Below, piece after piece: positions 22,185 through 50,018 of a stretch of 64,000 nt of DNA (positions are counted from its first letter, which is position 1; every line of letters begins with the position of its first letter). Position numbers and translations under genes: made by a program. Below the pieces are notes generated by a model. The model saw only the letters and a program-made list of their open reading frames with translations. It was not told the DNA's origin and ran no database searches. This stretch comes from an uncultured Actinomycetes bacterium. GTDB taxonomy: Bacteria > Actinomycetota > UBA4738 > HRBIN12. The stretch covers positions 143,861-207,860 of the forward strand of contig CAWCDA010000042.1 in NCBI GenBank assembly GCA_963794065.1, written 5' to 3'.

Positions 22185-22844
22185 CTACGCCGCCGCTTCG
22201 ATCCCGAGAAGGGTCTTGGCGCGGCTCACCGCCTTGGGCGCGTCCGGCGCGAAGCCGTCGGCCCCGATCTCCGTCGCCCACTCCTGCGTGACGGGGGCGC
22301 CGCCCACCATCACCTTGATCGAGTCGAACAGGCCCTCCTTCTTGAGGGCCTCGATCACGACCTTCTGCTGGGGGACCGTCGTGGTGAGCAGCGCCGACAT
22401 GCCGAGGATGTCGGGCTGCAGCTCGCGCACCGCGGTCAGGATCTTCTCCAGGGGGGTGTCCTTGCCGAGGTCGGTTACCTCGAAGCCCGCGGTCTTCAGC
22501 ATCGCGCCGACCATGTTCTTGCCGAGGTCGTGCAGGTCACCTTTCACGGTGCACAGGATCACCTTGCCGGTGATCTGCTTCTCGCCGCCGGCCGCCAGGA
22601 GCGCGGGCTCCACGAGGTCGTTGCACATCTTGAACAGCGTGGCCGAGGCAACCACCTCGGGCAGGAACACCTCGCCTCGCGACCACATCGCGCCCAAGGT
22701 GAACATCGCCGTGGCCATCGCGTCCTGCAGGATGATCACCGGATCGGCGCCCTCGTCCAGCAGCGCCTGCGTTGCCTCGACCCCTTCGTCGCGCTTCGCG
22801 CCGATCAGTGACTGGCGAAGCTTCTCCATGTTCTCTTCAGACAT
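22185..22844 (-). CDS. corrinoid (B12)-binding protein of a methyltransferase system (MttC/MtgC-like)
   Basis: B12-binding signature GDLHDLGKN (DxHxxG), then MSALLTTT (SxL), then MVGGAP (GG). An N-terminal helical cap domain is present. 219 aa. Confidence 0.85.
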   Translation of the reverse strand: MSEENMEKLRQSLIGAKRDEGVEATQALLDEGADPVIILQDAMATAMFTLGAMWSRGEVFLPEVVASATLFKMCNDLVEPALLAAGGEKQITGKVILCTVKGDLHDLGKNMVGAMLKTAGFEVTDLGKDTPLEKILTAVRELQPDILGMSALLTTTVPQQKVVIEALKKEGLFDSIKVMVGGAPVTQEWATEIGADGFAPDAPKAVSRAKTLLGIEAAA

Positions 22845-22927
22845 CTGCGTTCTCCTCAGATGGGGCCGGCGAGCCGACCGCGTTTGAATGGCCGTTCAAT
22901 ATACCGTGTCGCAGGTCGCGGGGGTAC

Positions 22928-24403
22928 TCAGGCGGCCTCGACGTGCTCCTGCTCGAACCGTTCCACGATGCCGCGGATCTCGTCTGCCGCGCCGTCGGGC
23001 AGCGGGTAGGGCTCATGGGACTCCAGGATCTCGTTGGCGCGCGCGATCGCCTTCGTCTTGGAGATCGGACGGCCGTTGGCCTCCCAGTCCTCCCAGTTGC
23101 CTCGATCGAACATCTTGGACTGCCAGACCTCGCGCATGTGCGTCAGCGTGTGGTCCTGATCGAGGAAGTGTCCTCCGGGCTGCACGGCGTCGATCACGTC
23201 GACCGCAAGCGACTCCGCGTCCCAGCTCTGGATGCCCTCCGACGTGGAGCAGATCAGGTCCCAGACCTCGGCGTCCAACACGAGTTGCGCGGCGCTGAAC
23301 ACCCGGGCCGCGTACAGCAGACCCGCTCCGCTTGCCATGTCGACCCCGGCGATCCAACTCGCGAACCCCGACAGCGCGTTCTCGACGCCGCCCTGCCAGT
23401 CGCTCGTCTTCGATCCGGTCGCGAACGTGCCCACCATCGACTTCAAGCCGTATGCGCGCGCGAGCTGGGCGTTGGACATCTGGAACACGAGGTCCTCCGG
23501 TCCGCCGCAGTTGGCCGCGCCCGACCACAGGTCCATCGTCGTGACCGCGCTGGCGTAGAACGTGCGAGCGCCCGGGGCGAGGAGCTGATGGGCGATGACC
23601 CCGCCGATCACCTCGGCGTTGTTGACCACCATGGTGCCGGCGCGGGTGATCGGCGAGGTTGCACCGAGGATCGGCATCACCATGAAGCCGCTCGGCACGT
23701 CGGCCTTCGCAAACTCCACGGCCGCGGCGAGTGGGCCGCCGTCGTAGACGAGCGGCGACACGCTGCACTGGAACGCCGACAGGATCGGCCGGTCGCGAAG
23801 CGCTTGTTCGCCGCCGACCGCAACCGCGGCCATCTCGGCGCTCGCAACCGCCTGCTCCGGGGTGACGGCGGTCATCATCACGATGTGCTTGCCGGTGTTG
23901 TTCAGATTCGCCTCGAGGTTGTGCAGCGGCTCGGAGGGCACCGGCATCTCGCGGCTCACCGCCGGCTGCCAGACGTAGCCGATCTGCGGGAGCGCGTCGC
24001 CGATCCTCGTGCCGGCGGCCACGTCCGCCTTTGTCGAGGCCCGGCGCAGGTCGGTTTCGAGGTCGACGACCTCGGCCGCGTTCCCATCGACGCCGAGATA
24101 CCCGCGTGTGCCGTCCAGGATGAGGTCCAGGCCCGGTTCGCGGGAGGCCAGCGGCAGGTCGCCGGGCACGGTCGCGAGCGCCCCCGCCTGCACGTCCTTC
24201 GGGAAGCGAGCCCGGCTGTCCTCCTCATCGATCACGGCGCCCGCGGCGCCGAGCTGCGCCAGGAGGCTGTCCGAGCGCACCTGGATGCCCGTGCGCCACA
24301 GGACCTCGGCAGTTGCCTCCCTGATGGCCTCCACGGCCTCCTCGGGGAGGATGTCGACGGGCGTCGACCGGTGATGGACGTAGCGGATCTCGCGCTCTGC
24401 CAT
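22928..24403 (-). CDS. MttB-superfamily (trimethylamine methyltransferase family) protein, non-pyrrolysine type; probable quaternary-amine:corrinoid methyltransferase
   Basis: ATG 24403 (MAEREIRYVHHRSTPVDILPEEAVEAIREA...) has GAGGAGA upstream. The product is 491 aa. It is uninterrupted, with no in-frame TAG. The rest of ORF 22928..25741 is antisense read-through of the next gene. Confidence 0.8.
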   Translation of the reverse strand: MAEREIRYVHHRSTPVDILPEEAVEAIREATAEVLWRTGIQVRSDSLLAQLGAAGAVIDEEDSRARFPKDVQAGALATVPGDLPLASREPGLDLILDGTRGYLGVDGNAAEVVDLETDLRRASTKADVAAGTRIGDALPQIGYVWQPAVSREMPVPSEPLHNLEANLNNTGKHIVMMTAVTPEQAVASAEMAAVAVGGEQALRDRPILSAFQCSVSPLVYDGGPLAAAVEFAKADVPSGFMVMPILGATSPITRAGTMVVNNAEVIGGVIAHQLLAPGARTFYASAVTTMDLWSGAANCGGPEDLVFQMSNAQLARAYGLKSMVGTFATGSKTSDWQGGVENALSGFASWIAGVDMASGAGLLYAARVFSAAQLVLDAEVWDLICSTSEGIQSWDAESLAVDVIDAVQPGGHFLDQDHTLTHMREVWQSKMFDRGNWEDWEANGRPISKTKAIARANEILESHEPYPLPDGAADEIRGIVERFEQEHVEAA

Positions 24404-24501
24404 GAAGGGGTCTCTCCTCGAAGTCGTCGGCGTTGGAACAGGGCTCGGGCGAATCGTCGATGCACGGTGCCACGAGCGGGGGTCGTCCGGAACCGTTCGG
24501 A

Positions 24502-24516
24502 CTGACCGTGGGTCAG
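24502..24516. promoter_or_regulatory. perfect inverted repeat CTGACC-GTG-GGTCAG in the mttB / kinase divergent intergenic region (candidate operator)
   Basis: Read directly. It lies about 100 nt upstream of the mttB start. A LacI-family regulator is encoded in the same operon. No experimental or consensus support. Confidence 0.25.
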
Positions 24517-28217: not shown

Positions 28218-28357
28218 GAACCCTGCATCGGCGCCCGCGCCTGGAACCCTGAGGGTGGTTCATCGTCGTGGTCGGGGGACACCCGAACGCACTACGCTGC
28301 GGAGATCCACTGGTAGCGAGGCCGGGACCCCCACGCCCGGAGGAGGGACACGCACCG

Positions 28358-29372
28358 ATGAACGACGCGATGCGCACCACCGCCACCGAACTGGTCGCGC
28401 CCGGCAAGGGCATCCTGGCCGCCGACGAATCGACCGGCACGATCAAGAAGCGGTTCGATTCGATCGGTGTCCCCAACACGGAGGAGAACCGACAGGCGTA
28501 CCGGCAGCTGCTGTTCACCACCCCGGCGCTGGGGGAGCACATCAGCGGCGCGATCCTGTTCGACGAGACGATCCGGCAGTCGACGGACGACGGGGTCTCC
28601 TTCGTGAAGGTCTTGGAAGGGGCGGGCGTGATCCCGGGGATCAAGGTCGACACCGGCGCGAAGCCGCTGGCGCTGTTCCCGAACGAGACGGTCACCGAAG
28701 GCCTCGACGGCCTTCGCGAGCGGCTGGCCGAGTATCGCGTGCTGGGCGCACGCTTCGCGAAATGGCGCGCGACGATCATCATCGGCGACGGGCACACCCA
28801 GCAATTTCGCGATCGACGCGAACGCACACGCGATGGCGCGCTACGCCGCCCTCTGCCAGGAGGCCGACGTCGTCCCGATCGTCGAGCCCGAGATCCTGAT
28901 GGACGGCGACCACGACCTCGCCGCCTGCGAGGAGGCGACGGGCCGCACGCTCGGCGCGCTGTATCGGCAGCTCGCCGCGCACCGGGTCGAGCTGCCCGGT
29001 TCGCTGCTGAAGGTGAACATGATCGTGCCGGGCGCCGGCAACGCGATCCAGGACGACGATCGAACGATCGCCGAGGCGACGATCCGGTGCCTGACGCAGC
29101 AGGTGCCGCCCGACGTCCCCGGGGTGGTGTTCCTGTCCGGCGGGATGAGCGACGAGCAGGCGACCAGCCGCCTGAACGAGATGAATCGGATCGGCGGCTT
29201 TCCCTGGCAGCTGTCCTTCTCCTACGGACGGGCGCTGCAGGCGCCGGCGATCAAGGCGTGGGGTGGCGACCCTGCGCACGTTGCGGCGGCGCAGCGAGCG
29301 CTCGCGCACCGCGCGAAGATGAACGGTCTCGCGCGCGCCGGCGCGTACGACCCGTCGATGGAGGCCGCGTGA
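28358..29372 (+). CDS. class I fructose-bisphosphate aldolase with an apparent 1-nt insertion in GGG at 28790-28792
   Basis: MNDAMRTTATELVAPGKGILAADESTGTIKKRF...KWRATIIIGDG (frame of ORF 28268..29404). It then continues TPSNFAIDANAHAMARYAALCQEADVVPIVEPEILMDGDH...LSFSYGRALQ (frame of ORF 28833..29372). GGAGGAGGG lies upstream of the ATG. Confidence 0.85.
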
Positions 29373-32986: not shown

Positions 32987-33068
32987 CCCATGGTTCGCGC
33001 CGACGTTCACCCCGGCGCCCCGGCCTCCGATACCGTGGTGAGCACCTAACCGATCAGGAGCACAGCCG

Positions 33069-34284
33069 ATGCAACGCACGAGCGCACCGCTTGACCTCGC
33101 GGCCGTCGAGCGGGTCCTGCAACCCTACGACCGGGCCCTCACGCTTCCAGGCGAGGCATACGGATCCCCCGACGTCTTTGCGTGGGAGCAGGCGCACCTG
33201 TTCGAGGGATCGTGGTCCTGTCTGGGGCGTACCGCGGACCTCGGTCTGGAGACGCCGGGGGACCAGGTCGCGCTGCAGGTCGGTCGTCAGAGCTTCCTCC
33301 TCGTGCGCGGCGACGACATGGTCGTGCGCGTGTTCCACAACATCTGCCGCCATCGAGGGCACGAGCTGCTCGGCGTCGGCGAGCATCGCAACCAACGGGG
33401 CATCCGGTGCCCCTACCACGCATGGGTGTACGGGCTCGGCGGCGATCTGCGTGCAACGCCGCGGTTCAACATGGACTCGCTGGACAAGGCCGACTTCCCG
33501 CTCGTCGAGGCGCGATCGGCGGAGTGGCACGGGTGGCTGTTCGTCAACGCGAGCGGCGACGCGCCGGACCTGACGGAGCACCTGGGAAACCTCGACATCG
33601 TCGTCGACGGCTATGCGCCGGAGGCGCTCCGGCTGGGTGCCATGCACGAATACGAGCTTGCGGCGAACTGGAAGATCGCCGTCGAGAACTACTGCGAGTG
33701 CTACCACTGTTCGGAGATCCATCCTGAGTTGTGCCGCGTGACGCCACCCGACTCCGATCTCGCCTACCCCGAGCGCTCGACGGGCGTCTGGCTCGGCGGA
33801 CCGATGGATCTCCTGGATCACGCGGTGACGATGTCGTTGACCGGCGCATCCGACGGCGTGCTCATCCCGGGCTTGCCCGAGGAGAAGCGTCGGCAGGTCG
33901 GCTACTCCGTCGTGTTCCCGAACCTGCTGATCAGCCCACACCCCGACTACGTGATGACGCATCGCCTGGTGCCGCTGGCCGCGGACCGAACGTGGGTCGA
34001 GTGCGCGTGGTACTTCCCTGAGGAGGCGTTCGCAAAGCCCGGATTTCTCCCCGGCGTACGCGACCGAGTTCTGGGACATCACGAACCGCGAGGATTGGGC
34101 CGCCTGCGAGTCCGTGCAACGCAACGTCACCTCGCCGGGATATCGACCCGGGCCGTTCTCGTACTGGGAGGTTGACGTGTTCCGCACGCAGGCCACGATC
34201 GCACGCGCATACCTGGAAGGGCATCTGTCGCCGCCCGAGCACGGGTACGTCGACGGTGTCGGGCGGGGTCTGACCGGCTTCTGA
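33069..34284 (+). CDS. Rieske [2Fe-2S] non-heme-iron oxygenase alpha subunit with an apparent frameshift near 34040
   Basis: Rieske motif CRHRGHEL...CPYHAWVY and mononuclear iron region NYCECYHCSEIHPEL. The C-terminus continues in the +1 frame (SPAYATEFWDITNREDWAACESVQRNVTSPGYRPGPFS...) to TGA 34282-34284. Confidence 0.75.
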
Positions 34285-35480: not shown

Positions 35481-36377
35481 GCGTCACCCCACGGGAGGTG
35501 CGCCCGATGAGCCCGGGCCCGCTCCATCCGGCGGAACACCACCACCGCCACCACGATGACGATCGTCGAGGTGACGAGCATCAGCGTGCCGATCGCATTG
35601 GCGGCCGGCGTCGGCGCCGTCCGGGCGGCGCTGTAGATCGCCATCGACACCGTCTGCGTCGTGGCGTCCAGGGACAGCTGGTTCGCGATCACGAAGTCGT
35701 CCAGTGCGAGCGCGAACACGATCGCGGCGCTGGCGAAGATCGACGGCCCCAGCAACGGGAGCGTGACGCGCCGAAGCGTCTGACCGGGCGACGCGCCGAG
35801 GTCCTGGGCCGCCTCCTCGTAGGAGGGCCCGAGCGATGAGCAGACGCGCGCGGACGATCACGACGGGATAGGCCACGGACAGGACGATCAACCCGGTCGC
35901 CTGCGCGGTGGTGCCGTACCCGATCGCCCGGAACGCCTGGTTGAACAGCAGGAAGAGCGCGACGGCCAGGATCAGCTCGGGCGTCACGAACGAGAACATC
36001 ATCATGAAGTTGGACGACCGCGACGAGACGCCCCGCCAGCGATGCAGGCCGATCGCGAACAGCACGCCCAGCGGCACCGCGATCACCGCGGTGAGCAGCG
36101 ACAGCTTCAGCGTCTGGATCACGGCATGTTGCAGTGCCGGGTCGTGCAGCACCGACGCGTCCGGATCGGTGATGTACCAGCGGAGCGAGAACCCCTGCCA
36201 CTGCGTGATCGATCGGCCACCGTTGAACGAGAAGATCACGGCCTGCACCACCGGCACGAAGACCACACGACGTAGGCGATCGCCAACACCCACAGGAACC
36301 GCGTCTTGCCCCAGGGGTTCGCCAGCCAGTCGCGGAACCCGATGCTGCGGCCGCGGCGGAGCGACGAGCACGCTCAT
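35432..36377 (-). pseudogene. ABC transporter permease, PotC-like (polyamine/opine type), three or more frameshifts
   Basis: Fragments lie in different frames. They are MSVLVA.., RRGRSIGFRDWLANPWGKTRFLWVLAIAYVVWS, VPVVQAVIFSFNGGRSITQWQGFSLRWY...AYPVVIVRARLL, and LGPSIFASAAIVFALALDDFVIANQL...VVVFRR. Confidence 0.65.
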
Positions 36378-37242
36378 GCAGCACCCACCTGTGTCGCCGC
36401 GCGCTGCGTGCTGCGCAGGTAGTACAGGATCGGGATGATCAGCAACACGAGCAGGACCAGGATCAGCGCGGCACCCTGCGGCACGAAGATCGGGGTGGTC
36501 AGCGCCTCGACGATCGCGTTGCCGATCATCCGCGTGCTGGCTCGTCTCCGCCAGCAGCTGCTGGGTGAAGTAGTCGCCGAACATCGGCAGCGCGCAGATC
36601 ACGAACCCGGCGAGGATCCCCTGCCGCGACTGCGGGAGCGTGACGCGCCAGAACGTCTGCGCGGGGCTCGCGCCGAGGTCACGACCCGCCTCGAGCGATC
36701 GAGGGATGGATCCGATCGAGCGTGGCGAACAGCGGGAGCACCATGAACGGCACGTAGCCGTAGACGAGGCCGATGATCAACGTCGCGGGCTTGCCGGCGA
36801 GCCACGGGTAGGGGCTGCTGGATGATCCCGAGCCGTCTGCAGGACCGAGTTGATCAGCCCGTCGTCTTCCAGCAGCGAGATCCACGCCAGCATCCGCAGC
36901 ATGTAGGAGATCCAGAACGGGGCGAAGAACAACGCGATGAACAGCCCCCGCCACCGCCCGGCGTGCCGCGCCAGGAAGTACGCGAACGGGTAGCCGACGA
37001 GCAGGCACAGGAACGTCGCGATCCCCGACGAACAGGAACGTCCGCACGAACGCCGCGTGGTACAGCCCGTCGACATGCGTCATGTTCGACAGCGTGAACG
37101 TGAGCACCGCCGGGTCCCACCGCAGCGGGTTCCACGCCGGCACGGGCTGCCGCAGGATGTGGTCGACGCCGCCGAAGGTCACCGCCAGCACGACGAAGAA
37201 CGGGAACACGAAGAACACGAGCAGGAAGACCGTCGCCGGCAT
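36374..37242 (-). pseudogene. ABC transporter permease, PotB-like, four or more frameshifts (start may lie upstream, up to about 37339)
   Basis: Fragments are MPATVFLLVFFVFPFFVVLAVTFGG, IATFLCLLVGYPFAYFLARHAGRWRGLFIALFFAPFWISYMLRMLAWISLLEDDGLIN, and PWLAGKPATLIIGLVYGYVPFMVLPLFATLDRI. A further fragment is VICALPMFGDYFTQQLL. Its stop overlaps the potC-like ATG (ATGA). Confidence 0.6.
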
Positions 37243-37442
37243 GGCGAACGACGGCCAGAACCACCGCGGGTACCAGGCCCGGTCGCCGGAGGTCGCTGTT
37301 CAGACACCCGCCGTCAGCTCGGCGTACGCGGCCTGCCACAGGGCGTCCGCGGTCGCCGGCAACTCGAGCTCCCTCGAGCCCTGGTCCATGTCGCTCTCCA
37401 CGATGTAGACGTTCGCAAGGTGCTCGGGCACGAGCCCGCTGC

Positions 37443-38624
37443 TCACGAGCGCATCCGGGTCATCGCCTTGATCGGCATCTGGTAGCCGGTCGGTGTCTCG
37501 AAGTTCGTCGATCGAGTTCTGCGGAGTCGAGGATATAGTTCGCCAGCAGGTGCGCGAGCACCGGCGCCTTGCCCGTGTTGAGCAGGACGAGCGTGTCGTT
37601 GTCGACGTTGCCCGGCGTGGCCGCTCTCGACCGGCCAGAGTAGGACAGGTTGTCGGCCTGCTCGCCCGATGGCAGGAACACGAAGGCGTCGCTGACGTTG
37701 CCCGACCACGACTGGTGCAGGTACGCCTGCCCGCGGGGACGTCGGTGTAGTCGACGTGGTCGAACGAGGCGTTCGTCGCGTTGACGATCTGCGGCGATCG
37801 CGTCCTTCGCTGAGCTGATCGTCGCCTGATCGGTGACGTTCACGTCGGTGAGGCCCTCGCGGAACATCGCCATCGACAGGACGTCCTGCGCGTTGGCGAG
37901 CAGGTGCGGTCTTGTCCATCGGCGCGCCGTCCCAGAAGATGTCGTAGGGGTTCGCCATGCCGGCGATGTCGGCGCTGATCTTGTCGTTGCGCCAGAAGAT
38001 CCCGGTGCTCCACACCGAATACGGCAGCGTGTAGTGCGAGTCGACGTCGTAGAACGGGCTCTGGAACGTGTCCCAACAGTTGGCCGGGAGGTTGGGGATG
38101 TAGTCCAGGTTGATCGGACGCAGCAGCCCCGCCGCGATCGAGCGACCGACGGCCCAGACGTTCATGCCGACCAGCAGGTCGAAGTCGCCCTGGCCCGTGT
38201 TGATCTTCGCGAGACCCTTGTCCATGTCGGCGAACTCGGTTTGCTCGACCGTGCAGCTGTACTTCTTCTCGAACGACTTGATCACCGAGGGAGCCAGGTA
38301 GTACGGCCAGCGGAGGATCTTCACGGTGGCGTTCTCCTCCGGCGGGAGGTCGCTCGCGATCAGCTCGGTGTCATCGACGTTCCAGGTGACGGGCGCGTCG
38401 GGACGCGCCAGGGGATAGGCCGCGCCGGAGATGCCGCCGGTGCCGAACTGGCTGCCGCTGCCACCGGAGGCCGCGGACGTCGCCACGCTGCTCTGCGCAC
38501 CGCTGCCGCACGCGGCGAGGATCGCCGACAGGCTGGGGACTGCGATGCCGGCGAGCGCTGCCCGCTGGAGAAACGCGCGACGACTGTAGAGCTGACGTTC
38601 TTTCGGGTGCAGCGGTCGGACCAT
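37443..38624 (-). pseudogene. ABC substrate-binding lipoprotein, PotD/PotF-like, about 6 frameshifts in the last 470 nt
   Basis: The Tat/lipoprotein signal is RRAFLQRAALAGIAVPSLSAILAAC. The gene is intact to ...DIFWDGAPMDKTA at about 37916. After that it alternates frames, through LLANAQDVLSMAMFREGLTDVNVTDQATISSAKDAIAAD / IVNATNASFDHVDYTDV / RGQAYLHQSWSGNVSDAFVFLPSGEQADNLSY. It continues through WPVESGHAG / NVDNDTLVLLNTGKAPVLAHLLANYILDSAEL / STNFETPTGYQMPIKAMTRMRS. Confidence 0.7.
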
Positions 38625-38734
38625 GCTGAGCTCCTCCTCCGGGGTGCGCGGATGCGTTGGTGCGCTTCGTACACCGGAATACGGTGCCGACGCAAACTCC
38701 GGCTTGGGTTGCGGGTCATCTCTACACTGCAGGC

Positions 38735-40567
38735 ATGCCCAGCAGAGACGACATCCGCAACGTGGCCATCGTGGCCCACGTCGATCATGGCAAGACCACC
38801 CTGGTGGACGCCATGTTGTGGCAGTCCGGCGCGTTCCGGGCCAATCAGGACGTGGCCGAGCGGGTGATGGACTCCATGGATCTCGAGCGGGAGAAGGGCA
38901 TCACGATCCTGGCCAAGAACACGGCCGTGCGATTCGGCGACATCAAGATCAACATCGTCGACACCCCCGGGCACGCCGACTTCGGGGGAGAGGTGGAGCG
39001 GGCGCTCACGATGGTCGACGGGGTCCTGCTGCTGGTCGACGCGTCCGAGGGTCCGTTGCCGCAGACGAGGTTCGTGTTGCGGAAGGCGCTCGAATCGAGG
39101 TTGCCCGTCGTCCTGGTGGTCAACAAGGTTGACCGTCCTGACGCCCGAGTGGAGGAGGTCGTCCACGAGGTCGAGGAGCTGTTCTTGGACCTCGACGCCG
39201 ACGAGCACCAGATCGATTTCCCGATCCTGTACGCGAACGCCCGGGACGGTCACTGCGGGCGAGCGCCCGACGCGTTGGAGGACTCGCTCCGGCCGCTGTT
39301 CGACACGTTGCTCGCGCACGTGCCCGCGCCGACGTACGAGCAGGATGCGCCGCTCCAGGCGCTGGTGACCAACCTGGACGCCTCCCCGTACCTCGGTCGG
39401 CTTGCGCTGTGCCGGGTCCGCAACGGGACGATCCGTCGCGGGCAACAGGTGGCGTGGTGCCGCGCGGACGGCACGATCGAGCGGGCCAAGATCATCGAGC
39501 TGTACGTGACCGATGCCCTCGATCGGGTCGAGGCCGAGGAGGCTGGCCCCGGGGAGATCTGCGCGATCGCCGGGATCGCGGACGTGACGATCGGCGAGAC
39601 GCTCGCCGACCCCGACGACCCACACCCGCTCCCGGTCGTCCGCGTCGACGAGCCCTCGTTGTCGATGACGATGGGGATCAACACGTCGCCGCTGTCCGGT
39701 CATGACGGCACGAAGGTCACCGCTCGGCTCGTCAAGGCCCGGTTGGACCAAGAGGTCATCGGGAACGTCTCGATCCGCGTGCTCGACACCGAGCGGCCCG
39801 AAACGTGGGAAGTCCAGGGCCGCGGCGAGCTCCAACTGGCGATCCTGGTCGAGGTGATGCGCCGCGAGGGGTTCGAGCTGACGGTCGGCAAGCCGCAGGT
39901 CGTGACGAAGACGGTCGACGGGAAGCTGCTCGAGCCGATGGAGCGCGTGGCGATCGACGCGCCCGAGGACTACCTCGGCGTGATCAGCCAGCTCCTCGCC
40001 TTGCGGAAGGGCCGCATGGAGCAGGTCGTGAACCACGGCACCGGATGGATCCGCATGGAGTACATCGTGCCCTCGCGCGGGCTGATCGGGTTCCGCACGG
40101 AGTTCATGACCGAGACGCGCGGCACCGGCCAGCTGCACCACGTGTTCGACGGCTACGAGCCCTGGCACGGCGAGCTGCGGACGCGTCCCTCGGGTTCGCT
40201 GGTCGCGGATCGACGCGGGCCGACCACCAACTTCGCGCTGCTCAACCTCCAGGAACGCGGCGTCATGTTCGTCGGGCCCGGGGAAGAGGTCTACGAGGGG
40301 ATGATCGTCGGCGAGAACGCCCGCGCCGACGACATGGACGTGAACCCCACGAAGGAGAAGCAGCTGACCAACATGCGAAAGGCCAACGCCGAGGAGCTCG
40401 TGCGGCTGATCCCGAGGACCCTGCTGTCCCTGGAGCAGGCGCTGGAGTTCATCCGCGAGGACGAGTGCGTCGAGGTCACGCCGAAGAACGTGCGACTGCG
40501 CAAGGTGTTGCTCGGTGCGAACGACCGCGTTCGCGCGTCGCGCCGCGGGCGGCCCGCGAAGGACTAG
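38735..40567 (+). CDS. typA: translational GTPase TypA/BipA
   Basis: Met27 of ORF 38657..40567 starts [28 protein letters not shown] (G1). It has [14 protein letters not shown] (G3) and NKVD (G4). 610 aa, intact. Confidence 0.95.
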
Positions 40568-43473: not shown

Positions 43474-44374
43474 TCATGAGGCTGTGGCTGGACCTTGGCC
43501 GGCCTCTTTGACGGCCCGCAGCACCGTATCGCCGATCTCGGCCGGGTTGCGGACGACCCGGTGGCCCAGTCCTTCGATCGCATCGAGCTTCGCGGCGGCG
43601 GTGTCGGCGTCGCCCGCGATCACCGCGCCGGCGTGGCCCATCCGGCGTCCGCGGGGCGCGGACATGCCCGCGATGAAGCAGACGAGCGGTTTCGCCATGT
43701 ACTGCGACGCCCACGTGGCCGCCTCGACCTCCTGCTGCCCGCCGATCTCGCCGATCATCACGACCACGTCGGTCTCGTCGTCGTTCTCGAACGCCTGCAG
43801 CACGGTCTTGAAGTCGGTGCCGTTGACAGGGTCGCCCCCGATCCCGACGCAGCTCGATTGTCCGAGTCCGAGCGCGGTCATCTGGCTGACCGCCTCGTAG
43901 TTGAGGGTGCCGGACCTCGACACGACTCCGACGCGGCCCGGCAGGTAGATGTGGCTCGGCATGATCCCGACCTTGCATTCGCCCGGTGTGATGATGCCCG
44001 GCGAGTTCGGGCCGATGATCGTCGTCGAGCGGCCGGCCAGGTAGCGCTTCGTGCGGACCATGTCCTGGACGGGCACGCCGTCCGCGATGATCACGGCGAT
44101 CTGGATGCCGGCCTCGACCGCCTCCAAGCAGCGAGTCGGTCGCGATCGCGGGCGGCACGAAGATCCCGCTCACCGTCGCGCCTGTCTCCTCGACGGCCTC
44201 GGCGACCGAGTTGAATACCGGCAGCCCGAGATGCGTCCTGCCGCCCTTCCCGGGCGTGACGCCGCCCACGACCTTCGTGCCGAACCGGATCGACTCCTCG
44301 GCATGGAACGTCGCGTGCTGGCCGGTGAAGCCCTGGATGATCACCTTCGAGTCTTTGTCGACGAACACGCTCAT
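43474..44374 (-). CDS. sucD: succinate/malate--CoA ligase alpha subunit (SucD/MtkB family) with an apparent frameshift near 44130-44150
   Basis: [45 protein letters not shown]...GIFVPP. It then continues in ORF 43474..44127: [14 protein letters not shown]...[10 protein letters not shown]...MGHAGAVI (phospho-His loop). The ATG overlaps the sucC stop (ATGA). Confidence 0.85.
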
Positions 44375-45540
44375 GCGGCCGCCTCCGAGACGGCAGCAAC
44401 GGCCTTCGCCGCCGCATCGTCGAGGTCGTCGGCCTGGATCACGGCCAAGCCGGATTCCGTCAGGATGCGACGGCCTTCCTCGACGTTCGTGCCGGCGAGG
44501 CGCGCGATGACCGGTACGTCGATCTGCTGATCGCGGGTCGCCTGCACGATGCCCTGCGCGATCCAGTCGCAGCGGTTGATGCCGGCGAAGATGTTGACCA
44601 GGATCGCCTCGACGTTCGGGTCGGTCAGCACGATCCGGAACGCGTTCGCGATCTTCTCCGGGCTCGCGCCGCCCCCCACATCGAGGAAGTTCGCGGGGCG
44701 CCCGCCGTGATGCACGATCGCATCCATCGTCCCCATCGCGAGCCCGGCGCCGTTGACGATGCATCCCACGTTGCCGTCGAGCGCGACGTAATTCAGCCCG
44801 TGCCCCGACGCGTCGACCTCCTTCGGGTCTTCTTCGTCGAAGTCGCGCAGTTCGGCCACCGGGGCCTGCCGGTACAGCGCGTTGTCGTCGAACTGCATCT
44901 TGCAGTCCAGGGCGATCAGATCCCCGTCCTCCGTGACGATGAACGGGTTGATCTCGAGCAGCAGGCAATCCTTGTCGCGGAACAGCCGGTAGATCCGCTT
45001 CAACAGCCTGGTGAACGACGACGCGCGGTTCGCAAGGCCGATCGATGTTGCGATCTTGCGGCACTGGAAGTCGAGCAACCCGACGCCGGGATCCACGTAC
45101 TCGGTGTGGATCAGCTCCGGGCGTTCGGCGGCGACCTCCTCGATCTCGACGCCTCCTTCCGCGGAGACGATCACGACGATCTTCTGCGAGGTGCGGTCGA
45201 CGATCATGCTGAGGTAGAACTCGCGATCGATCCGACTGGCGCGCTCCACCAACACGCGGTGGACCCGTTTGCCCTCGGGCCCCGTCTGCGCCGTGCTCAG
45301 GGTCGAACCGATCATCTGGTCGGCGACCTCAGCCACCTTCTCCACCGAGTTGGCGACCTTGACGCCCCCGCCCTTCCCCCGGCCCCCGGCGTGGATCTGC
45401 GCCTTGACCACCCATCGGACGCCGCCGAGTTCCTCCGCCACCCGAGCCGCCGCGCGGTCGCTGTAGACGACCTCACCGGCGGGCACAGGCACGCCGTAGC
45501 TCTTGAGCAGTTCCTTCGCTTGATACTCGTGGATGTTCAT
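44371..45540 (-). CDS. sucC: succinate/malate--CoA ligase beta subunit (SucC/MtkA family, ADP-forming)
   Basis: Intact 389-aa [28 protein letters not shown]...[16 protein letters not shown]...[11 protein letters not shown]...NIFAGI. Gene context suggests a malate thiokinase (see findings). Confidence 0.9.
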
Positions 45541-45561
45541 CCGTCCTCGCCTCCGCGCCCG

Positions 45562-46527
45562 TCAGCGGGCGCGCATCTGCTCGACCTTGGTGATCAGGTT
45601 CTGCGCCATGCGGATCGATGCGGCGTCGATCAGGCGGCCGTCGAGCGAGACTGCCCCCTTGCCCTGCTTGGCACCGTCCTCCATCGCCTGGAGGATGCGG
45701 TGTGCGCGTTCGACCTCGGCGGCGGCCGGCGTGAAAACCTCGTTCGCGAGCGCGATCTGAGATGGATGGATCGCCCACTTGCCCTCGCATCCGAGCGCGG
45801 CAGCGCGCCGCGCCGCGCTCCGATAGCCGTCCGCGTCGTTGAGGTCGCCGAACGGTCCGTCGATCGGCCGCAACCCCTCCGCGCGACAGGCGGCGACCAT
45901 TCGCGAGATGCCGAAGTGCCATTGGTCGCCCCAGTGCGTCTCGCGTGCACCGGTCGCGTCGACATCGGTCAGCACGGCGTAGTCGGGATTCGCGCCGCCG
46001 ATGTTCGTCGTTCGCGCCTGCACGCTGGCCGCGTAGTCGGCGACGCCGAAGACCATCGCCTCGAGCCGGTCGGGCCGTGCGCGCGCGATCGACTCGACAT
46101 TGGCCATGCCTTTGGCGGTTTCGATCAGGATGTGGATGCCGATCCGACCGGGCTCCCACCCGTTGCGCTGCTCGATCTGATCCAACAGGGTCGCGACGAA
46201 CGCCACGTCGGATGCCGACCCCACTTTCGGGACGAGCACGGTGTCGAGGACGTCGCCGTGTGCCTCGACGACGTCGACGATATCCCGATAGCACCAGTGG
46301 GTGTCGAGGCCGTTGACGCGCACGCTGATCGCCGTCGCTGCCCAGTCCTGCGTGCCGAACGCGGCGATCACGTTGGCGCGGGCCTGCTCCTTGTCATCGG
46401 GCGCGACCGCGTCCTCCAGGTCCAGGAAGACGAGGTCCGCGCCGAGGGTGGGCGCCTTCTCGATCGCGCGCACGTTGGTGCCGGGCACGGCGAGCTCGCT
46501 GCGGTGCAGCCGGGCCTTGTCGCTCAT
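45562..46527 (-). CDS. HpcH/HpaI-CitE-family CoA-ester lyase, malyl-CoA lyase-like
   Basis: 321-aa ORF: RSELAVPGTNVRAIEKAPTLGADLVFLDLEDAVAPDDK...LVPKVGSASDV...IETAKGMANVESIA...VFGVADYAAS. The length and motifs match my recollection of L-malyl-CoA/beta-methylmalyl-CoA lyases. Confidence 0.7.
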   Translation of the reverse strand: MSDKARLHRSELAVPGTNVRAIEKAPTLGADLVFLDLEDAVAPDDKEQARANVIAAFGTQDWAATAISVRVNGLDTHWCYRDIVDVVEAHGDVLDTVLVPKVGSASDVAFVATLLDQIEQRNGWEPGRIGIHILIETAKGMANVESIARARPDRLEAMVFGVADYAASVQARTTNIGGANPDYAVLTDVDATGARETHWGDQWHFGISRMVAACRAEGLRPIDGPFGDLNDADGYRSAARRAAALGCEGKWAIHPSQIALANEVFTPAAAEVERAHRILQAMEDGAKQGKGAVSLDGRLIDAASIRMAQNLITKVEQMRAR

Positions 46528-46533
46528 GGCGGC

Positions 46534-47671
46534 TCAGCGTGGCAGGACGGCGTCGAAGGCGCCAAGGACGCGATCGGCGGCCCCGCGGGTCGCGTTCACG
46601 CCCATCAGGCCGACACGCCAGATCGGCGGAGCCTTCGGACCGAGCCCGCCGCCGACCTCGAGGTTGAACTCGCGCAGGAAGCGTCCCTGCACCTCCTTGC
46701 CGTCGACGCCCTCGGGCACCTTGACGGCGGTGAGCTCGACCAGCTGGTGGTCGCCGTCGGCGAGCAATTCGAAGCCGCGGGCCGTGATCTGCTCCTGGAA
46801 GTAGCGACCGGCGTCGGTGTGACGAGCCCAGCGGTTCTCGAGGCCCTCCTCGAGCGCCAGGCGGATCCCGGTATACAGGGCGTAGTACTGCAGGATCGGC
46901 ATGGTGTGGTGGTAGGCGATCGGGCGGTCGATCCAGTACTTCGCCAGCTCCTCGAAGTCGTAGTAGTAGGGGACCGGGCTCGTGTGCGCCTTCATGACTT
47001 CGATCGCGCGATCGCTGATCGTGACCGGCGCGATGCCGGGCGGACACCCGAGGGCCTTCTGCGAGCAGGAGTAGCCGTAGTCGATGCCCCATGCGTCGGC
47101 CTCGACGCGTTGGCCGCCGAGCGACGTCACGCAGTCCGCGTAGAGCAGCGCGTCAGAACCGCTCGCCCGCATCGCCTCGGCGAACTCCTGCAGCGGGAAC
47201 TCCACACCCGGTCGACGTCTCGGCGTGCACGACCGAGACGACCTTCGTGGCGGGGTTGGCTTCGAGCGTCGCCATGATCCGGTCGACCGGGACGAGCTGA
47301 CCGAAATCCGCGGTGAGCTCGATGACCTCGGCGCCGACCCGGTGCGCGAAGTCGTTCAACCGCGAGCCGAAGAATCCCCAGTGACAGCTGATGACCGTGT
47401 CGCCGGGCTCGATCAGGTTCATGAGGCCCGCCTCCATCGCCGATGTGCCCGAGGACGACAGGCAGATCGACAGTCCGTGCGGGGAACGCCAGAGCGCCTG
47501 CAGGCCTGACACGAGGTCGACGAGGATGTCCCAGAAGTCGGGGTCGAGATGCCCGTTCATCGGCAGGCGCATCGATTCCAGGACGTCCGGGTGCACGTTC
47601 GAGGGGCCGGGACCACAGAGCAGTCGCTCGCCGGGGTCCAATGTGGGGATCGAGGTCGCCAGGTCGGCCAT
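46534..47671 (-). CDS. class V aminotransferase (serine--glyoxylate / alanine--glyoxylate aminotransferase type) with an apparent frameshift near 47205-47215
   Basis: Met23 of ORF 47153..47737 (GGAAGGAAG upstream) starts MADLATSIPTLDPGERLLCGPGPSNVHPDVL...SSSGTSAMEAGL...VVHAETSTG. It then runs into ORF 46534..47205: ...ALLYADCVTSLGG...YSCSQKALG (PLP-Lys). Confidence 0.8.
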
Positions 47672-47731
47672 GGCTCTTCCTTCCTTTCGAGTCCCGGTCG
47701 GTCCGCCGGCCGGGATGAGGGGCGGAGCATA

Positions 47732-47765
47732 GGGCACCCGTTCCGACAGGAGGTAGCGGGTGCCC
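47732..47765 (-). other. intercistronic stem-loop (9-bp perfect stem) between the reductase and aminotransferase genes
   Basis: GGGCACCCG (47732-47740), a 16-nt loop, then CGGGTGCCC (47757-47765). No U-tract follows. Function unknown (attenuator, processing or stability element). Confidence 0.3.
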
Positions 47766-47822
47766 TTGAACGCCGGTCAGTGGTCGGCGGTCATCCCGTG
47801 TTCTGCAGCCCCGTCGCCACCG

Positions 47823-48803
47823 CTACACGAACGCTTCGGGATTGAGGAGCGTGGGCGGTCGGGCGCCGTCGAGCGCTGCGAAGACGTTGTCGACCGCGAG
47901 GTTGCCCATCGCCTCGCGCGTATCGATCGTCGCGCTGCCCAGATGGGGGATCACGACCGCGCGCTCCAGCTCCAACAGCTTGGCGGTGACCTCCGGCTCC
48001 CGCTCGAAGACGTCGAGGCCGGCGGCGAACAGTTCCCCGGCCTCCAGCGCATCGGCGAGTGCGGCCTCGTCCACGACCGGCCCGCGCGACGTGTTGACGA
48101 GCACGGCGTTCGGCTTCATCCGGCGGAACTCCTCGGCGCTGAACAGGTGGCGTGTCTCGGGCGTGAGGTTGGTGTGGATCGAGATGAAGTCCGCCACCGA
48201 GAGCAGCTCGTCGAGCTCGACCCGGCGCGCGGCGGTCTCGGCCTCGACCTCCGCGGGCAGCGCCACTGCGTCGCTGTACAGGACGGTCATACCGAACCCC
48301 TTCGCCCGGCGAGCGACCGCCTGCCCGATCCGCCCGAAGCCGACGATGCCGATCGTCTTGTGATGGACGTCCTGGCCCAGCATCATCAATGGACCCCAGA
48401 TCCACGGCGTCCGGGCACGCAGGAGGCGTTCGCCTTCGCCGATCCGCCGAGCGCCCGCCAACAGGAGGGCGAACGCCGTGTCGGCCGTGGTCTCCGTCAA
48501 CACGTCGGGTGTATTGCTGGCGAGCACCCCCGCGTCGGTGCACGCGGCGATGTCGACGTTGTCGAACCCGACCGCGTGGTTCGCCACGATCCTCAGCTGC
48601 GGCCCGGCGGCGCCGAGCAACTCCGCATCGACGCGCTCGGTGAGCATCGTGATCAACGCGTCGCGGCCCGCAACGACCCGCAAGAGTTCATCGCGCGGGA
48701 TCCCGAACTCGTTCTCGTGCACGGTCACGTCGCATCGCTCTCGCAGACGAGCGAGCGGCTCATCCATGATCGGGCGGGTCACCAGCACGTTCGGTCGACT
48801 CAC
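47823..48803 (-). CDS. D-isomer-specific 2-hydroxyacid dehydrogenase (glyoxylate/hydroxypyruvate reductase type)
   Basis: GTG 48803 (GAGGAG 8 nt upstream) starts VSRPNVLVTRPIMDEPLARL.... NAD motif IGIVGFGRIGQAVARRA. Catalytic R/E/H contexts NTSRGPVVDE and VIPHLGSAT. The upstream part of ORF 47823..49115 is Arg-rich read-through. Confidence 0.8.
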   Translation of the reverse strand: MSRPNVLVTRPIMDEPLARLRERCDVTVHENEFGIPRDELLRVVAGRDALITMLTERVDAELLGAAGPQLRIVANHAVGFDNVDIAACTDAGVLASNTPDVLTETTADTAFALLLAGARRIGEGERLLRARTPWIWGPLMMLGQDVHHKTIGIVGFGRIGQAVARRAKGFGMTVLYSDAVALPAEVEAETAARRVELDELLSVADFISIHTNLTPETRHLFSAEEFRRMKPNAVLVNTSRGPVVDEAALADALEAGELFAAGLDVFEREPEVTAKLLELERAVVIPHLGSATIDTREAMGNLAVDNVFAALDGARPPTLLNPEAFV

Positions 48804-49414: not shown

Positions 49415-49923
49415 TCAGTCGACGATGTCGATTCGTTCGATCACAACGTCGTCCACCGGGCGATCGTTCCCTCCGGTGGCGAGACCCGCGATCGACTCCA
49501 CGACGTCGTAGCCCTCGGTCACCTGGCCGAAGATGGTGTGCCGGCCGTTGAGCCACGGCGTCTCCGCCACCGTCACGAAGAACTGGCAGCCGTTCGTTCC
49601 GGGGCCCGCATTTGCCATCGCCAACCGGCCCACCTGGTTGAACGTTGGTCCGTCCGCCGGGCACTCGTCGTCGAACGTGTAGCCCGGCCCGCCGGATCCG
49701 TGCCGGTCGGGTCGCCGCCCTGGATCATGAAGCCGCCGATCACGCGATGGAACACCGTCCCCGGGTAGAGCGCGCCCGTCTGTGCCGATCCATCACGCGG
49801 GTCGGTCCAAGGCTTCGCACCGGTCGCAAGCCCGACGAAGTTCTCGACGGTCTTTGGAGCGTGGTCGGGCATGAGCGACACGGTGAACGTGCCCTTGTTG
49901 GTGACGAACGTGGCGTTCGGCAT
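49415..49923 (-). CDS. cyclophilin-type peptidyl-prolyl cis-trans isomerase with an apparent 1-nt deletion near 49695
   Basis: [32 protein letters not shown]...[18 protein letters not shown]. Restoring one G (ACGGATCC to ACGGGATCC) continues it as [41 protein letters not shown].... Confidence 0.85.
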
Positions 49924-50018
49924 GGATGACTCCTCTCCTCCGAGGCTGTCAGCCTACGGGTTCGCGTCGGCGACGTCGGGTCGTTGCTGGCGACCCCGTG
50001 CGCACCTACGCTGCCGGC

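Follow-up and report, generated by a model that had tools for sequence, protein, structure and literature searches.

We identify, in the genome of an uncultured soil actinobacterium (NCBI class Actinomycetes; 77.5% complete), a serine-cycle-type operon encoding a predicted malate thiokinase (MtkAB), malyl-CoA lyase (Mcl), AGXT-type aminotransferase and glyoxylate/hydroxypyruvate reductase (Hpr), which has lost its PEP carboxylase gene (ppc) and which, on balance, we think works as an open pathway.

Organization of the operon

The operon is encoded on the minus strand of the window, the 64,000-nucleotide stretch of DNA analyzed here (Table 1). The coordinates, spacers and family assignments that the initial annotation gave for its five genes, hpr, a class V glyoxylate aminotransferase gene, mcl and two CoA-ligase subunit genes, are all borne out. 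The spacers measure 151 nt (hpr/aminotransferase), 6 nt (aminotransferase/mcl) and 21 nt (mcl/ligase beta), and the mtkB start overlaps the mtkA stop by 4 nt (ATGA). The operon was described as uncommon in a high-GC Gram-positive-type genome; it is in fact not rare among public actinobacterial metagenome-assembled genomes (MAGs), and we find it in 21 of the 38 genomes of this uncultured genus. The corrinoid-dependent methyltransferase noted in the same window is confirmed as an MttB-family gene (22931-24502) with a corrinoid protein gene (22188-22895), about 20 kb away from the operon.

Table 1. Features of the operon, with positions in the window.
Feature	Position	Strand	Remarks
hpr, D-2-hydroxyacid dehydrogenase, glyoxylate/hydroxypyruvate reductase (GRHPR) family	47823..48803	-	326 aa, GTG start
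PEP carboxylase (ppc) gene scar	47791..47820	-	last 9 codons and stop, VATGLQNTG-stop; starts 2 nt past the hpr stop codon
Retained ppc-sga intergenic region, upstream of the aminotransferase gene	47672..47790	-	alignment with six congeners
Class V glyoxylate aminotransferase, AGXT type	46534..47671	-	378 aa after removing one extra base
mcl, predicted malyl-CoA lyase	45562..46527	-	321 aa
mtkA, predicted malate-CoA ligase (malate thiokinase) beta subunit	44371..45540	-	389 aa
mtkB, predicted malate-CoA ligase alpha subunit	43474..44374	-	299 aa after removing one extra base

The ligase groups with malate thiokinases

By every available sequence test, the apparent succinyl-CoA synthetase pair of the window is a malate thiokinase. 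In a tree of concatenated alpha and beta subunits, all mcl-linked ligases form one clade (100/99) that unites the window pair with the Mtk of Methylobacterium, Methylorubrum, Paracoccus and Aminobacter and with the Methylococcaceae mcl-mtkAB, and nine SucCD rows fall outside it. The Methylococcaceae are represented in the tree by family members other than Methylococcus capsulatus Bath, the species whose Mtk was characterised as 'SucCD-2'. Support for the Mtk grouping is 94/96 in the beta-only tree and weak (74/90) in the alpha-only tree. Eight clade-specific residues are present in 22/22 proteobacterial Mtk and 15/15 actinobacterial sequences and in 0/9 SucCD: P294, R302, A319, N322 and W326 of mtkA, which together make one motif of 11 letters, and D98, Y143 and Q214 of mtkB. 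The altered ligase residues sit in the NIFGGI..CD loop, where every mcl-linked ligase carries one 11-letter form. The best plasmid matches are all annotated by PGAP as 'malate--CoA ligase subunit beta' and lie within sga-mcl-mtkA-mtkB-hpr(-gck/ppc/glyA) clusters.

It is extremely unlikely that the ligase is instead an additional succinyl-CoA synthetase, or acts on some other dicarboxylate, and adjoins a CitE-family lyase only by chance. Model scores lean that way: the mtkA product exceeds the cut-off of the SucC NCBIfam model (556 bits against 370) and falls under that of the Mtk beta model NF010647 (563.7 against 604), and the mtkB product exceeds the SucD cut-off (425 bits against 336). E. 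coli SucC is also the top match among solved structures, there being no structure of an Mtk. Against these scores stand the tree and signature residues, the loop changes common to every mcl-linked ligase, and the mcl-mtkA-mtkB adjacency, which is kept across three phyla or classes. The genome also has a separate housekeeping sucCD of actinobacterial type on another contig (C15:46454-48495), grouping with Nonomuraea SucCD (100/97), so the window ligase is not the sole copy. The suggestion that this ligase is not housekeeping SucCD therefore holds. The Mtk of M. capsulatus, too, was initially labelled SucCD-2 (PMC6162302).

E. coli SucCD (1SCU/2SCU) and the C15 copy share the fold and two-subunit architecture of the window ligase. 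Identity of the window pair is 51-56% with E. coli SucC and SucD, but only 41-50% with the SucCD of its own genome. It differs from SucCD in falling into a separate clade, in signature substitutions within the NIFGGI loop and ITEGIP motif, and in its linkage to mcl rather than to TCA-cycle genes.

Lyase, aminotransferase and reductase

Structural matches make the lyase orthologous to Methylobacterium extorquens Mcl (PDB 5UGR, 419 bits, residues 5-318); next come R. sphaeroides Mcl1 (4L9Y, 301 bits) and the Chloroflexus protein (4L7Z, 195 bits). Citrate-lyase-like chains reach at most 136 bits, and we reject a CitE assignment, in agreement with the malyl-CoA lyase type originally proposed. The class V glyoxylate family assigned to the aminotransferase stands, but its type is AGXT and not methylotroph Sga: the best PDB match is the alanine-glyoxylate aminotransferase 1VJO (329 bits), with 244 bits to human AGXT, 137 bits to plant SGAT (6PK1) and only 25-33% identity to the Sga of methylotrophs. 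Hpr scores 343 bits against the NCBIfam glyoxylate reductase model; its highest PDB scores are to glyoxylate reductases from Pyrococcus (285-314 bits), with 227 bits to the D-glycerate dehydrogenase of Hyphomicrobium (1GDH).

A PEP carboxylase gene has been deleted from the operon

The 151-nt gap that separates hpr from the aminotransferase gene is more than a spacer: it contains a ppc 3′ remnant, which can be aligned with the ppc 3′ ends of congeners (G007, G006, G005, G001 and G046). In G001, G005, G006, G007, G015, G046, G049 and G034, this position within the operon is occupied by an entire ppc of about 2.6 kb. Many congeners thus retain the ancestral form of the operon, hpr-ppc-sga-mcl-mtkA-mtkB. 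The deletion junction is identical in the nearest congener, G048. Loss of ppc occurred at least twice, with differing junctions, which suggests that the module serves some role for which a complete cycle is not required. We found no PEP carboxylase elsewhere in this 77.5%-complete genome; with ppc deleted, a closed serine cycle via PEP carboxylase is not encoded.

The retained ppc-sga intergenic region contains two conserved blocks, GTGCCCTATGCT and CCGGCCGGCGGACCGACCGG, which are putative elements, and a ribosome-binding site, GGAAAGGA. A search of this region gave no Rfam family match and no consensus promoter.

The remaining genes are under purifying selection

Measured against G048, which shares the ppc deletion (dS 0.17-0.30), dN/dS is 0.13 for hpr, 0.12 for the aminotransferase gene, 0.07 for mcl, 0.05 for mtkA and 0.04 for mtkB. 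The five remaining genes have thus been under purifying selection since ppc was lost.

Two of them are not open as written, each carrying a one-base insertion that the initial annotation does not mention. In the 1138-nt aminotransferase gene, the extra base lies at 47206-47209 (GG to GGG relative to G048) and the frame switches between TSTG and VEFPL; in the 901-nt alpha-subunit gene, it lies at 44126-44128 and the frame switches between DSLL and EAVEAG. Together with the true deletion of ppc, frameshifts in two of five genes could indicate that the operon is decaying here, with the aminotransferase gene and mtkB as pseudogenes. We regard this as very unlikely, given the low dN/dS of all five genes since the split from G048. 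Both insertion sites are intact in G048 and G047, the aminotransferase gene is intact in G047, G044, G046, G007 and G001, and mtkB is intact in G048, G047, G046, G007 and G008. Frameshifts occur at a similar density in essential and housekeeping genes: in the window, those for aldolase, Rieske oxygenase and cyclophilin are each split over two frames, as are both housekeeping sucCD genes on C15. One of the insertions extends a G run, a typical long-read error. The congeners are Microflora Danica Nanopore MAGs (PMC12313526); those in few contigs have frameshifts at other positions, and those in many contigs are intact. Both frameshifts are most likely long-read assembly errors.

Comparison with known gene clusters

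The enzyme set of the operon is that of the serine-cycle clusters of alphaproteobacterial methylotrophs, which are ordered hpr ... mtkA-mtkB-ppc-mcl in Methylobacterium/Methylorubrum and sga-mcl-mtkA-mtkB-hpr-gck on Aminobacter aminovorans pAA01; Paracoccus aminovorans plasmid II provides another example. The core order sga-mcl-mtkA-mtkB is common to the window, Aminobacter and Sinorhizobium, and identities to these proteobacterial clusters are 59-65% (Mcl), 55-58% (MtkA) and 50-58% (MtkB). Unlike them, the window operon resides in a high-GC actinobacterium, has an AGXT-type aminotransferase, has its ppc deleted and includes neither mtdA nor fch; the glycerate kinase of the genome is unlinked and of PF02595 type rather than the DUF4147/MOFRL type of the alphaproteobacterial clusters.

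Outside the actinobacteria, Mcl, MtkA and MtkB all have their closest relatives in Gamma- and Betaproteobacteria (Methylococcaceae, including relatives of M. capsulatus, and Nitrotoga, Thiodiazotropha and Sedimenticolaceae), whose mcl-mtkA-mtkB clusters share the gene order and encode proteins that are 64-74% (Mcl), 61-66% (MtkA) and 64-73% (MtkB) identical. In the concatenated tree, the window clade joins the Methylococcaceae/Nitrotoga/Thiodiazotropha group as its sister (100/100). In the loci examined, the aminotransferase gene, hpr and ppc are not adjacent to these clusters. Thermoleophilia MAGs (Gaiellales, Solirubrobacterales) have, as in the window, an orthologous AGXT-type aminotransferase gene (53-63% identical) adjoining mcl (61-75%), but lack mtkAB beside mcl in those loci.

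A probable open pathway for glyoxylate and C1 units

Further pathway genes are found elsewhere in the genome: GlyA (SHMT), the glycerate kinase, FolD, formate-THF ligase (FtfL), isocitrate lyase (ICL) and at least four MttB paralogues, with a folate C1 cluster beside formate dehydrogenase on contig C36. The genome search recovered no ppc, MtdA, true fch or PQQ methanol dehydrogenase; an 'Fch-like' match is a formiminotransferase-cyclodeaminase. Pyruvate carboxylase, GTP-PEPCK and malic enzyme were also not found in this 77.5%-complete genome, so that, with no PEP carboxylase found either, a closed serine cycle would need PEPCK-ATP in reverse.

From this gene content we infer substrates, flux direction and a physiological role in C1 assimilation. 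MtkAB would convert malate to malyl-CoA using ATP, Mcl would convert malyl-CoA to acetyl-CoA and glyoxylate, and the aminotransferase would convert glyoxylate to glycine, with serine as the likely amino donor, giving hydroxypyruvate that Hpr would convert to glycerate. SHMT, glycerate kinase, FolD and formate-THF ligase would complete a route from C1-tetrahydrofolate and glycine to phosphoglycerate. ICL can regenerate glyoxylate from acetyl-CoA, and several MttB-type methyltransferases could supply the folate pool with methyl groups.

ADP-forming CoA ligases are reversible. Mcl and Mtk could therefore run backwards as an ATP-conserving substitute for malate synthase, in which ICL-derived glyoxylate and acetyl-CoA yield malyl-CoA and then malate and ATP; this would complete a glyoxylate shunt, permitting growth on C2 compounds, and leave the aminotransferase and Hpr as accessory enzymes balancing glyoxylate and glycine. 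ICL is present in 36/38 genomes of the genus and true malate synthase in only 4/38, this genome not among them; the lack of detected PEP carboxylase, pyruvate carboxylase and malic enzyme here, and repeated ppc loss with mcl and mtkAB under purifying selection, also fit. We nevertheless consider reversal rather unlikely. The ancestral ppc, hpr and glyoxylate aminotransferase gene would be needless for a malate synthase bypass and match the methylotroph clusters. Many congeners (e.g. G002, G016, G012 and G031) encode ICL yet lack both malate synthase and mcl, indicating that ICL in the genus does not depend on the Mcl-Mtk pair, and G046 and G013 have malate synthase as well as the operon.

The glyoxylate/C1 role proposed earlier in place of a TCA-cycle role is thus supported, and the ppc inside the same operon of congeners strengthens a serine-cycle reading. 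This genome and G048 belong to a lineage that deleted ppc while the other five genes stayed under purifying selection, and the module therefore probably acts here as an open pathway, from C4/C2 compounds to glyoxylate and, with C1 units, to C3 compounds. The carbon-assimilation cycle is probably not closed in this genome, and the operon would let methyl groups be used alongside other substrates instead of driving an autocatalytic cycle, unless an ATP-dependent PEPCK carboxylates PEP.

Operon structure and reading frames

Stop-to-stop ORFs and direct reading of the strand place five co-directional genes on the minus strand, with spacers of 151, 6 and 21 nt and a 4-nt ATGA overlap, exactly as the initial annotation had described; the 21-nt spacer lies between mcl and the downstream mtkA. 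Family scans bear out the gene-family labels given there. The operon thereby holds the serine-cycle signature genes sga, hpr, mcl and mtkAB together, and the coordinates of these and all other features are collected in the table.

Coordinates of the operon, of related genes in the same genome (C-numbers, other contigs) and of comparison loci in other genomes or plasmids (L-numbers)
Feature	Location	Strand	Remarks
hpr	window 47823-48803	minus	
conserved stretch upstream of sga	window 47672-47790	minus	
class V aminotransferase gene (sga)	window 46534-47671	minus	1138 nt
mcl	window 45562-46527	minus	
ligase beta subunit (mtkA)	window 44371-45540	minus	
ligase alpha subunit (mtkB)	window 43474-44374	minus	901 nt
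MttB-family methyltransferase and adjoining B12-binding corrinoid protein	window 22188-24502	minus	LacI regulator alongside
class I fructose-bisphosphate aldolase	window 28253-29369	plus	split in two frames, Pfam positions 3-142 and 142-334
Rieske ring-hydroxylating oxygenase alpha subunit	window 33048-34281	plus	split frames, Pfam positions 3-142 and 124-205
ABC importer permease and binding-protein genes	window 35522-38834	minus	split between reading frames
cyclophilin	window 49418-49950	minus	split frames, Pfam positions 4-61 and 66-157
second sucCD	C15:46454-48495		tblastn
GlyA	C31:151272-152507		
glycerate kinase	C43:79232-80179		PF02595
isocitrate lyase (ICL)	C45:80656-81891		
folate one-carbon cluster	C36:10418-21219		
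further MttB paralogue	C54:107997-109499		
further MttB paralogue	C42:23468-24925		
further MttB paralogue	C22:5520-6947		
site without ppc in the operon, congener G048	L121:9640-9855		
site without ppc in the operon, congener G047	L123:5780-5940		
site without ppc in the operon, congener G044	L124:9265-9440		
mcl-mtkA-mtkB, congener G045	L122:7725-10843		
mcl-mtkA-mtkB, congener G043	L125:5253-8282		
mcl and divergent ligase, MAG MFD09212.bin.1.234	L057:9153-11185		uncultured Actinomycetes
sga-mcl-mtkA-mtkB, Sinorhizobium sp. C101	L027:3835-9864		plasmid pC101c

Two of the five genes, those for the aminotransferase and the alpha subunit, are not open as written. The aminotransferase frame switches between AETSTG and VEFPLQ, where the window has one extra base at 47206-47209 (GG to GGG) relative to the nearest congener (G048), and the alpha-subunit frame switches between TDSLL and EAVEAG, with one extra base at 44126-44128 by the same comparison. 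The genome of the window is a 3.1-Mb MAG in 71 contigs whose completeness is only 77.5% despite contigs of up to 392 kb. Its housekeeping sucCD carries single-base indels in both genes, and the other split genes of the window (table) fit an indel problem that affects the whole assembly, at roughly one every few kilobases; the GC3/codon-score segmentation of genes is rough and served only to choose stretches for Pfam, not to count frameshifts genome-wide. Among congeners, few-contig genomes have the operon frameshifted at other positions (sga in G006; mcl in G005; sga and hpr in G048), and many-contig, short-read genomes have it intact. The named congeners belong to the Microflora Danica MAGs, a set obtained by Nanopore sequencing (PMC12313526). 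Given the split housekeeping genes, the congener pattern and this Nanopore origin, the two operon frameshifts are probably not biological. Frameshifts in this assembly are mostly technical and are not to be taken for pseudogenes.

Rfam, promoter and terminator scans of the operon gave no match. Upstream of the aminotransferase gene, a stretch with a homologue in six congeners contains the conserved blocks GTGCCCTATGCT and CCGGCCGGCGGACCGACCGG; the species that share these blocks differ otherwise at synonymous sites. No Rfam family matches this stretch, a candidate internal promoter or regulatory leader.

The CoA ligase groups with malate thiokinases

The initial annotation took the sucCD-like pair for a probable malate thiokinase (Mtk). 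The tree, signature residues, the adjoining mcl and a separate sucCD elsewhere in the genome all favor this assignment (malate-CoA ligase, EC 6.2.1.9); set against it is a missed cut-off. The window beta subunit scores 563.7 bits with the NCBIfam equivalog for the beta subunit of malate--CoA ligase (NF010647), below the cut-off of 604. Despite this, NF010647 is its top-scoring model (SucC model, 556 bits), and the housekeeping SucC reaches only 278 + 82 bits with it. The second, bona fide sucCD on contig C15 is only 41-50% identical to the window pair.

In a plasmid collection, the top matches to the beta subunit, at 56-58% identity, all carry the annotation malate-CoA ligase and sit within serine-cycle clusters. 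Among them are Aminobacter pAA01 (sga-mcl-mtkA-mtkB-hpr-gck) and Paracoccus aminovorans (sga-mtkA-mtkB-hpr-ppc-glyA, with mcl and gck nearby). Lower matches are proteobacterial and Bacillus SucC (50-54%) and actinobacterial SucC (41-43%). On a Sinorhizobium plasmid, sga-mcl-mtkA-mtkB is directly followed by a BCCT-family (betaine/choline/carnitine) transporter gene, a further hint of a link between the module and quaternary-amine catabolism.

We built a maximum-likelihood tree (LG+C20) of 46 concatenated beta and alpha pairs, including nine SucCD rows. All mcl-linked ligases form one clade (support 100/99) with all nine SucCD rows outside. Its members are Mtk of Alphaproteobacteria, Methylobacterium and Methylorubrum among them, pairs from Gamma- and Betaproteobacteria, Methylococcaceae among them, and the actinobacterial pairs. 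The Mtk references are congeners or family members of strains with characterized Mtk rather than those strains themselves. The window clade is sister to the gamma/beta group (100/100), and the C15 pair groups with Nonomuraea SucCD (100/97). Single-subunit trees agree with the Mtk grouping (beta only, 94/96), the alpha-only tree more weakly (74/90). The window ligase thus stands apart from the SucCD of its relatives and is not the sole copy in its genome. The closest non-actinobacterial relatives are the mcl-mtkAB clusters of Methylococcaceae, Nitrotoga and Thiodiazotropha; Thermoleophilia MAGs have sga-mcl pairs without mtkAB.

Eight alignment columns separate the groups, with the same residue in 22/22 proteobacterial Mtk and 15/15 actinobacterial sequences and in 0/9 SucCD. 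These are P294, R302, A319, N322 and W326 of the beta subunit and D98, Y143 and Q214 of the alpha subunit, a signature derived from our own alignment rather than from a published definition. It includes one loop of the beta subunit, NIFGGIxxCDx in SucC, that differs in the mcl-linked ligases and offers a simple discriminator. A precedent for the mislabeling of such enzymes is the Methylococcus capsulatus ligase with demonstrated malate thiokinase activity, which was first annotated as SucCD-2 (PMC6162302).

Lyase, aminotransferase and reductase

The lyase, assigned by its ladder of PDB scores and its identities to named loci, is of the malyl-CoA lyase type (EC 4.1.3.24), as initially proposed. 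It matches M. extorquens malyl-CoA lyase (5UGR) over its whole length with 419 bits, followed by R. sphaeroides Mcl1 (4L9Y, 301 bits) and the Chloroflexus enzyme (4L7Z, 195 bits). CitE-like chains score at most 136 bits (RipC 3QLL, 136; CLYBL, 111), which places it nearest to characterized Mcl and not with citrate lyase beta subunits, RipC or CLYBL. No NCBIfam equivalog cut-off was reached, the sole Mcl model in that library being haloarchaeal. E136 (the Glu of IETA) and D164 (the Asp of GVADY) are invariant in an alignment with proteobacterial Mcl; we take them to be the acidic metal-binding pair of the HpcH/CitE family. Mtk and Mcl of the window are both orthologs of known enzymes.

The aminotransferase is of the AGXT type, with 329 bits to Nostoc alanine-glyoxylate aminotransferase (1VJO), 244 bits to human AGXT and only 137 bits to plant serine-glyoxylate aminotransferase; its identity to the Sga proteins of Paracoccus and Aminobacter is 25-33%. 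Its family predicts action on glyoxylate, with serine as the putative amino donor. Hpr belongs to the glyoxylate/hydroxypyruvate reductase family.

An inherited deletion of ppc

A profile search of the 77.5% complete genome found no PEP carboxylase (PEPC; PF00311). This gene, ppc, lies between hpr and the aminotransferase gene in all congener contexts examined (G001, G005, G006, G007, G015, G046, G049 and G034), which gives hpr-ppc-sga-mcl-mtkA-mtkB as the ancestral operon and strengthens the serine-cycle reading for the genus. In the window, 2 nt after the hpr stop codon, comes GTGGCGACGGGGCTGCAGAACACGGGATGA, which translates to VATGLQNTG*, the C-terminal end of PEPC; the scar is followed by the same intergenic region that lies 3' of ppc in congeners. 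The nearest congener, an independent MAG with operon proteins 96-98% identical, has an identical junction, which argues that the deletion is real and inherited.

Like the nearest congener, two further species of the genus (G047 and G044) lack ppc in the operon. Their junctions differ from that of the window, pointing to at least one further independent loss and so to at least two in the genus. In G047 the 3' end of hpr is fused directly to the last codons of ppc. Since the split of the window genome from its nearest congener, dN/dS has been 0.04-0.13 (dS 0.17-0.30) for all five remaining genes; as these values follow the shared deletion, the ppc-less module has been kept by selection. At least two independent deletions, with purifying selection on the rest, amount to a natural experiment on how useful individual parts of the serine cycle are by themselves. 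Compared with known systems, what differs is the actinobacterial host, another aminotransferase subfamily and the selectively maintained ppc-less form.

The initial proposal of a serine-cycle-type module holds on gene set, order and phylogeny. In this genome, with ppc deleted, closure of the cycle through PEPC is not possible.

Pathway genes in the genome and the genus

Of the other pathway genes sought in the genome (gck, ppc, glyA, mtdA/fch and folD), glycerate kinase, GlyA (SHMT) and FolD were found; PEPC, MtdA and a methylotroph Fch were not. ICL offers a way to regenerate glyoxylate. Formate-THF ligase (FtfL) and PEPCK-ATP are present as well, and the latter might substitute for PEPC. In this 77.5% complete genome we did not find a MOFRL-type glycerate kinase, malate synthase, pyruvate carboxylase, GTP-PEPCK, malic enzyme, PQQ methanol dehydrogenase or MtdA, nor, for the ethylmalonyl-CoA pathway as another route to glyoxylate, a crotonyl-CoA carboxylase/reductase above cut-off. 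Two candidates were rejected. An aminotransferase/dehydrogenase pair on C31, considered as a second sga/hpr, consists of a 525-aa SerA with an ACT domain and a class V aminotransferase for serine biosynthesis, and an 'Fch-like' match on C36 is the cyclodeaminase half of formiminotransferase-cyclodeaminase. The latter belongs to a folate one-carbon cluster that also encodes 5-formyl-THF cyclo-ligase, a GcvT-like aminomethyltransferase, formiminotransferase, FdhD and, on the minus strand, formate-THF ligase; at the contig end a molybdopterin formate dehydrogenase begins.

The corrinoid-dependent methyltransferase noted initially in the window was recovered as an MttB-family gene with an adjoining corrinoid protein. 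The genome has at least four MttB-family genes, predicted candidates for C1 methyl transfer. Congeners have up to 15 PF06253 matches (G045), some of which may be pieces of frameshifted genes. From its gene content, the genus appears specialized in demethylating quaternary or methylated amines; its MAGs were recovered from soils and sediments.

In the 38 genomes of the genus, incomplete MAGs in which an absence means only that a gene was not found, we counted mcl in 21, ppc in 16, ICL in 36, malate synthase in 4, pyruvate carboxylase in 0, PEPCK-ATP in 37 and MttB in 28; GTP-PEPCK was not found in these incomplete genomes. Central metabolism in the genus is unusual, with near-universal ICL, rare true malate synthase and some genomes with neither mcl nor malate synthase. 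The idea that the genus has no gluconeogenic C4-to-C3 enzyme, which would make the module its only C3 route, was rejected on the PEPCK-ATP count.

At least two families of the order have orthologous operons. Two congeners (G045 and G043) have mcl-mtkA-mtkB, at more than 60% identity, without an adjoining aminotransferase gene or hpr, so within the genus the module also occurs as three genes alone. A further MAG of an uncultured Actinomycetes bacterium (L057) has an mcl with a 68% identical product, followed by a much more divergent two-subunit ligase (30% identical to the window pair in beta, 40% in alpha), which may be a different CoA ligase recruited beside Mcl.

A proposed open pathway for C1 co-assimilation

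With ppc gone, the module is most economically read as an open pathway. Glyoxylate would come from malate by way of Mtk and Mcl and from isocitrate by way of ICL, and the aminotransferase would convert it to glycine; SHMT would join glycine and a C1-THF unit into serine, and serine would pass through hydroxypyruvate and glycerate to phosphoglycerate. By such a pathway, the cell could assimilate C1 units from methyl groups alongside other substrates.

In the main rival reading, Mcl and Mtk would run in the reverse direction and, next to ICL, serve as a malate synthase that yields ATP. That malate synthase is nearly absent from the genus and that ppc was lost repeatedly both fit this scheme, which leaves unexplained how ppc, hpr and the aminotransferase gene came to be part of the operon and why many congeners have ICL with neither malate synthase nor mcl.

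Extended to the whole genus, the open pathway becomes part of a broader scenario that we offer tentatively, as possible but on balance doubtful. This uncultured, abundant soil genus of Actinomycetes would run a genuine one-operon serine cycle (hpr-ppc-sga-mcl-mtkAB) on methyl groups released by an expanded set of MttB paralogs from quaternary or methylated amines, and sub-lineages like that of the window would have repeatedly dropped ppc in favor of open co-assimilation of C1 and multi-carbon substrates. We know of no earlier case of serine-cycle methylotrophy among Gram-positive bacteria, of which this would be the first; the cultured Gram-positive methylotrophs that we know of use the RuMP pathway. 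Our literature searches found no paper describing this actinobacterial operon, though such a paper may exist.

Close metagenomic relatives of the beta subunit number in the thousands; the 120 listed are all at least 81% identical and mostly labeled succinyl-CoA synthetase. By our reading, the thousands of 'succinyl-CoA synthetase beta subunit' entries in this clade are malate thiokinases, so for these soil actinobacteria the TCA cycle and C1 assimilation are both miscounted in pathway reconstructions. If the broader scenario is true, the genus, with its operon-encoded serine cycle and its many MttB methyltransferases, would be a candidate sink for methylated amines.
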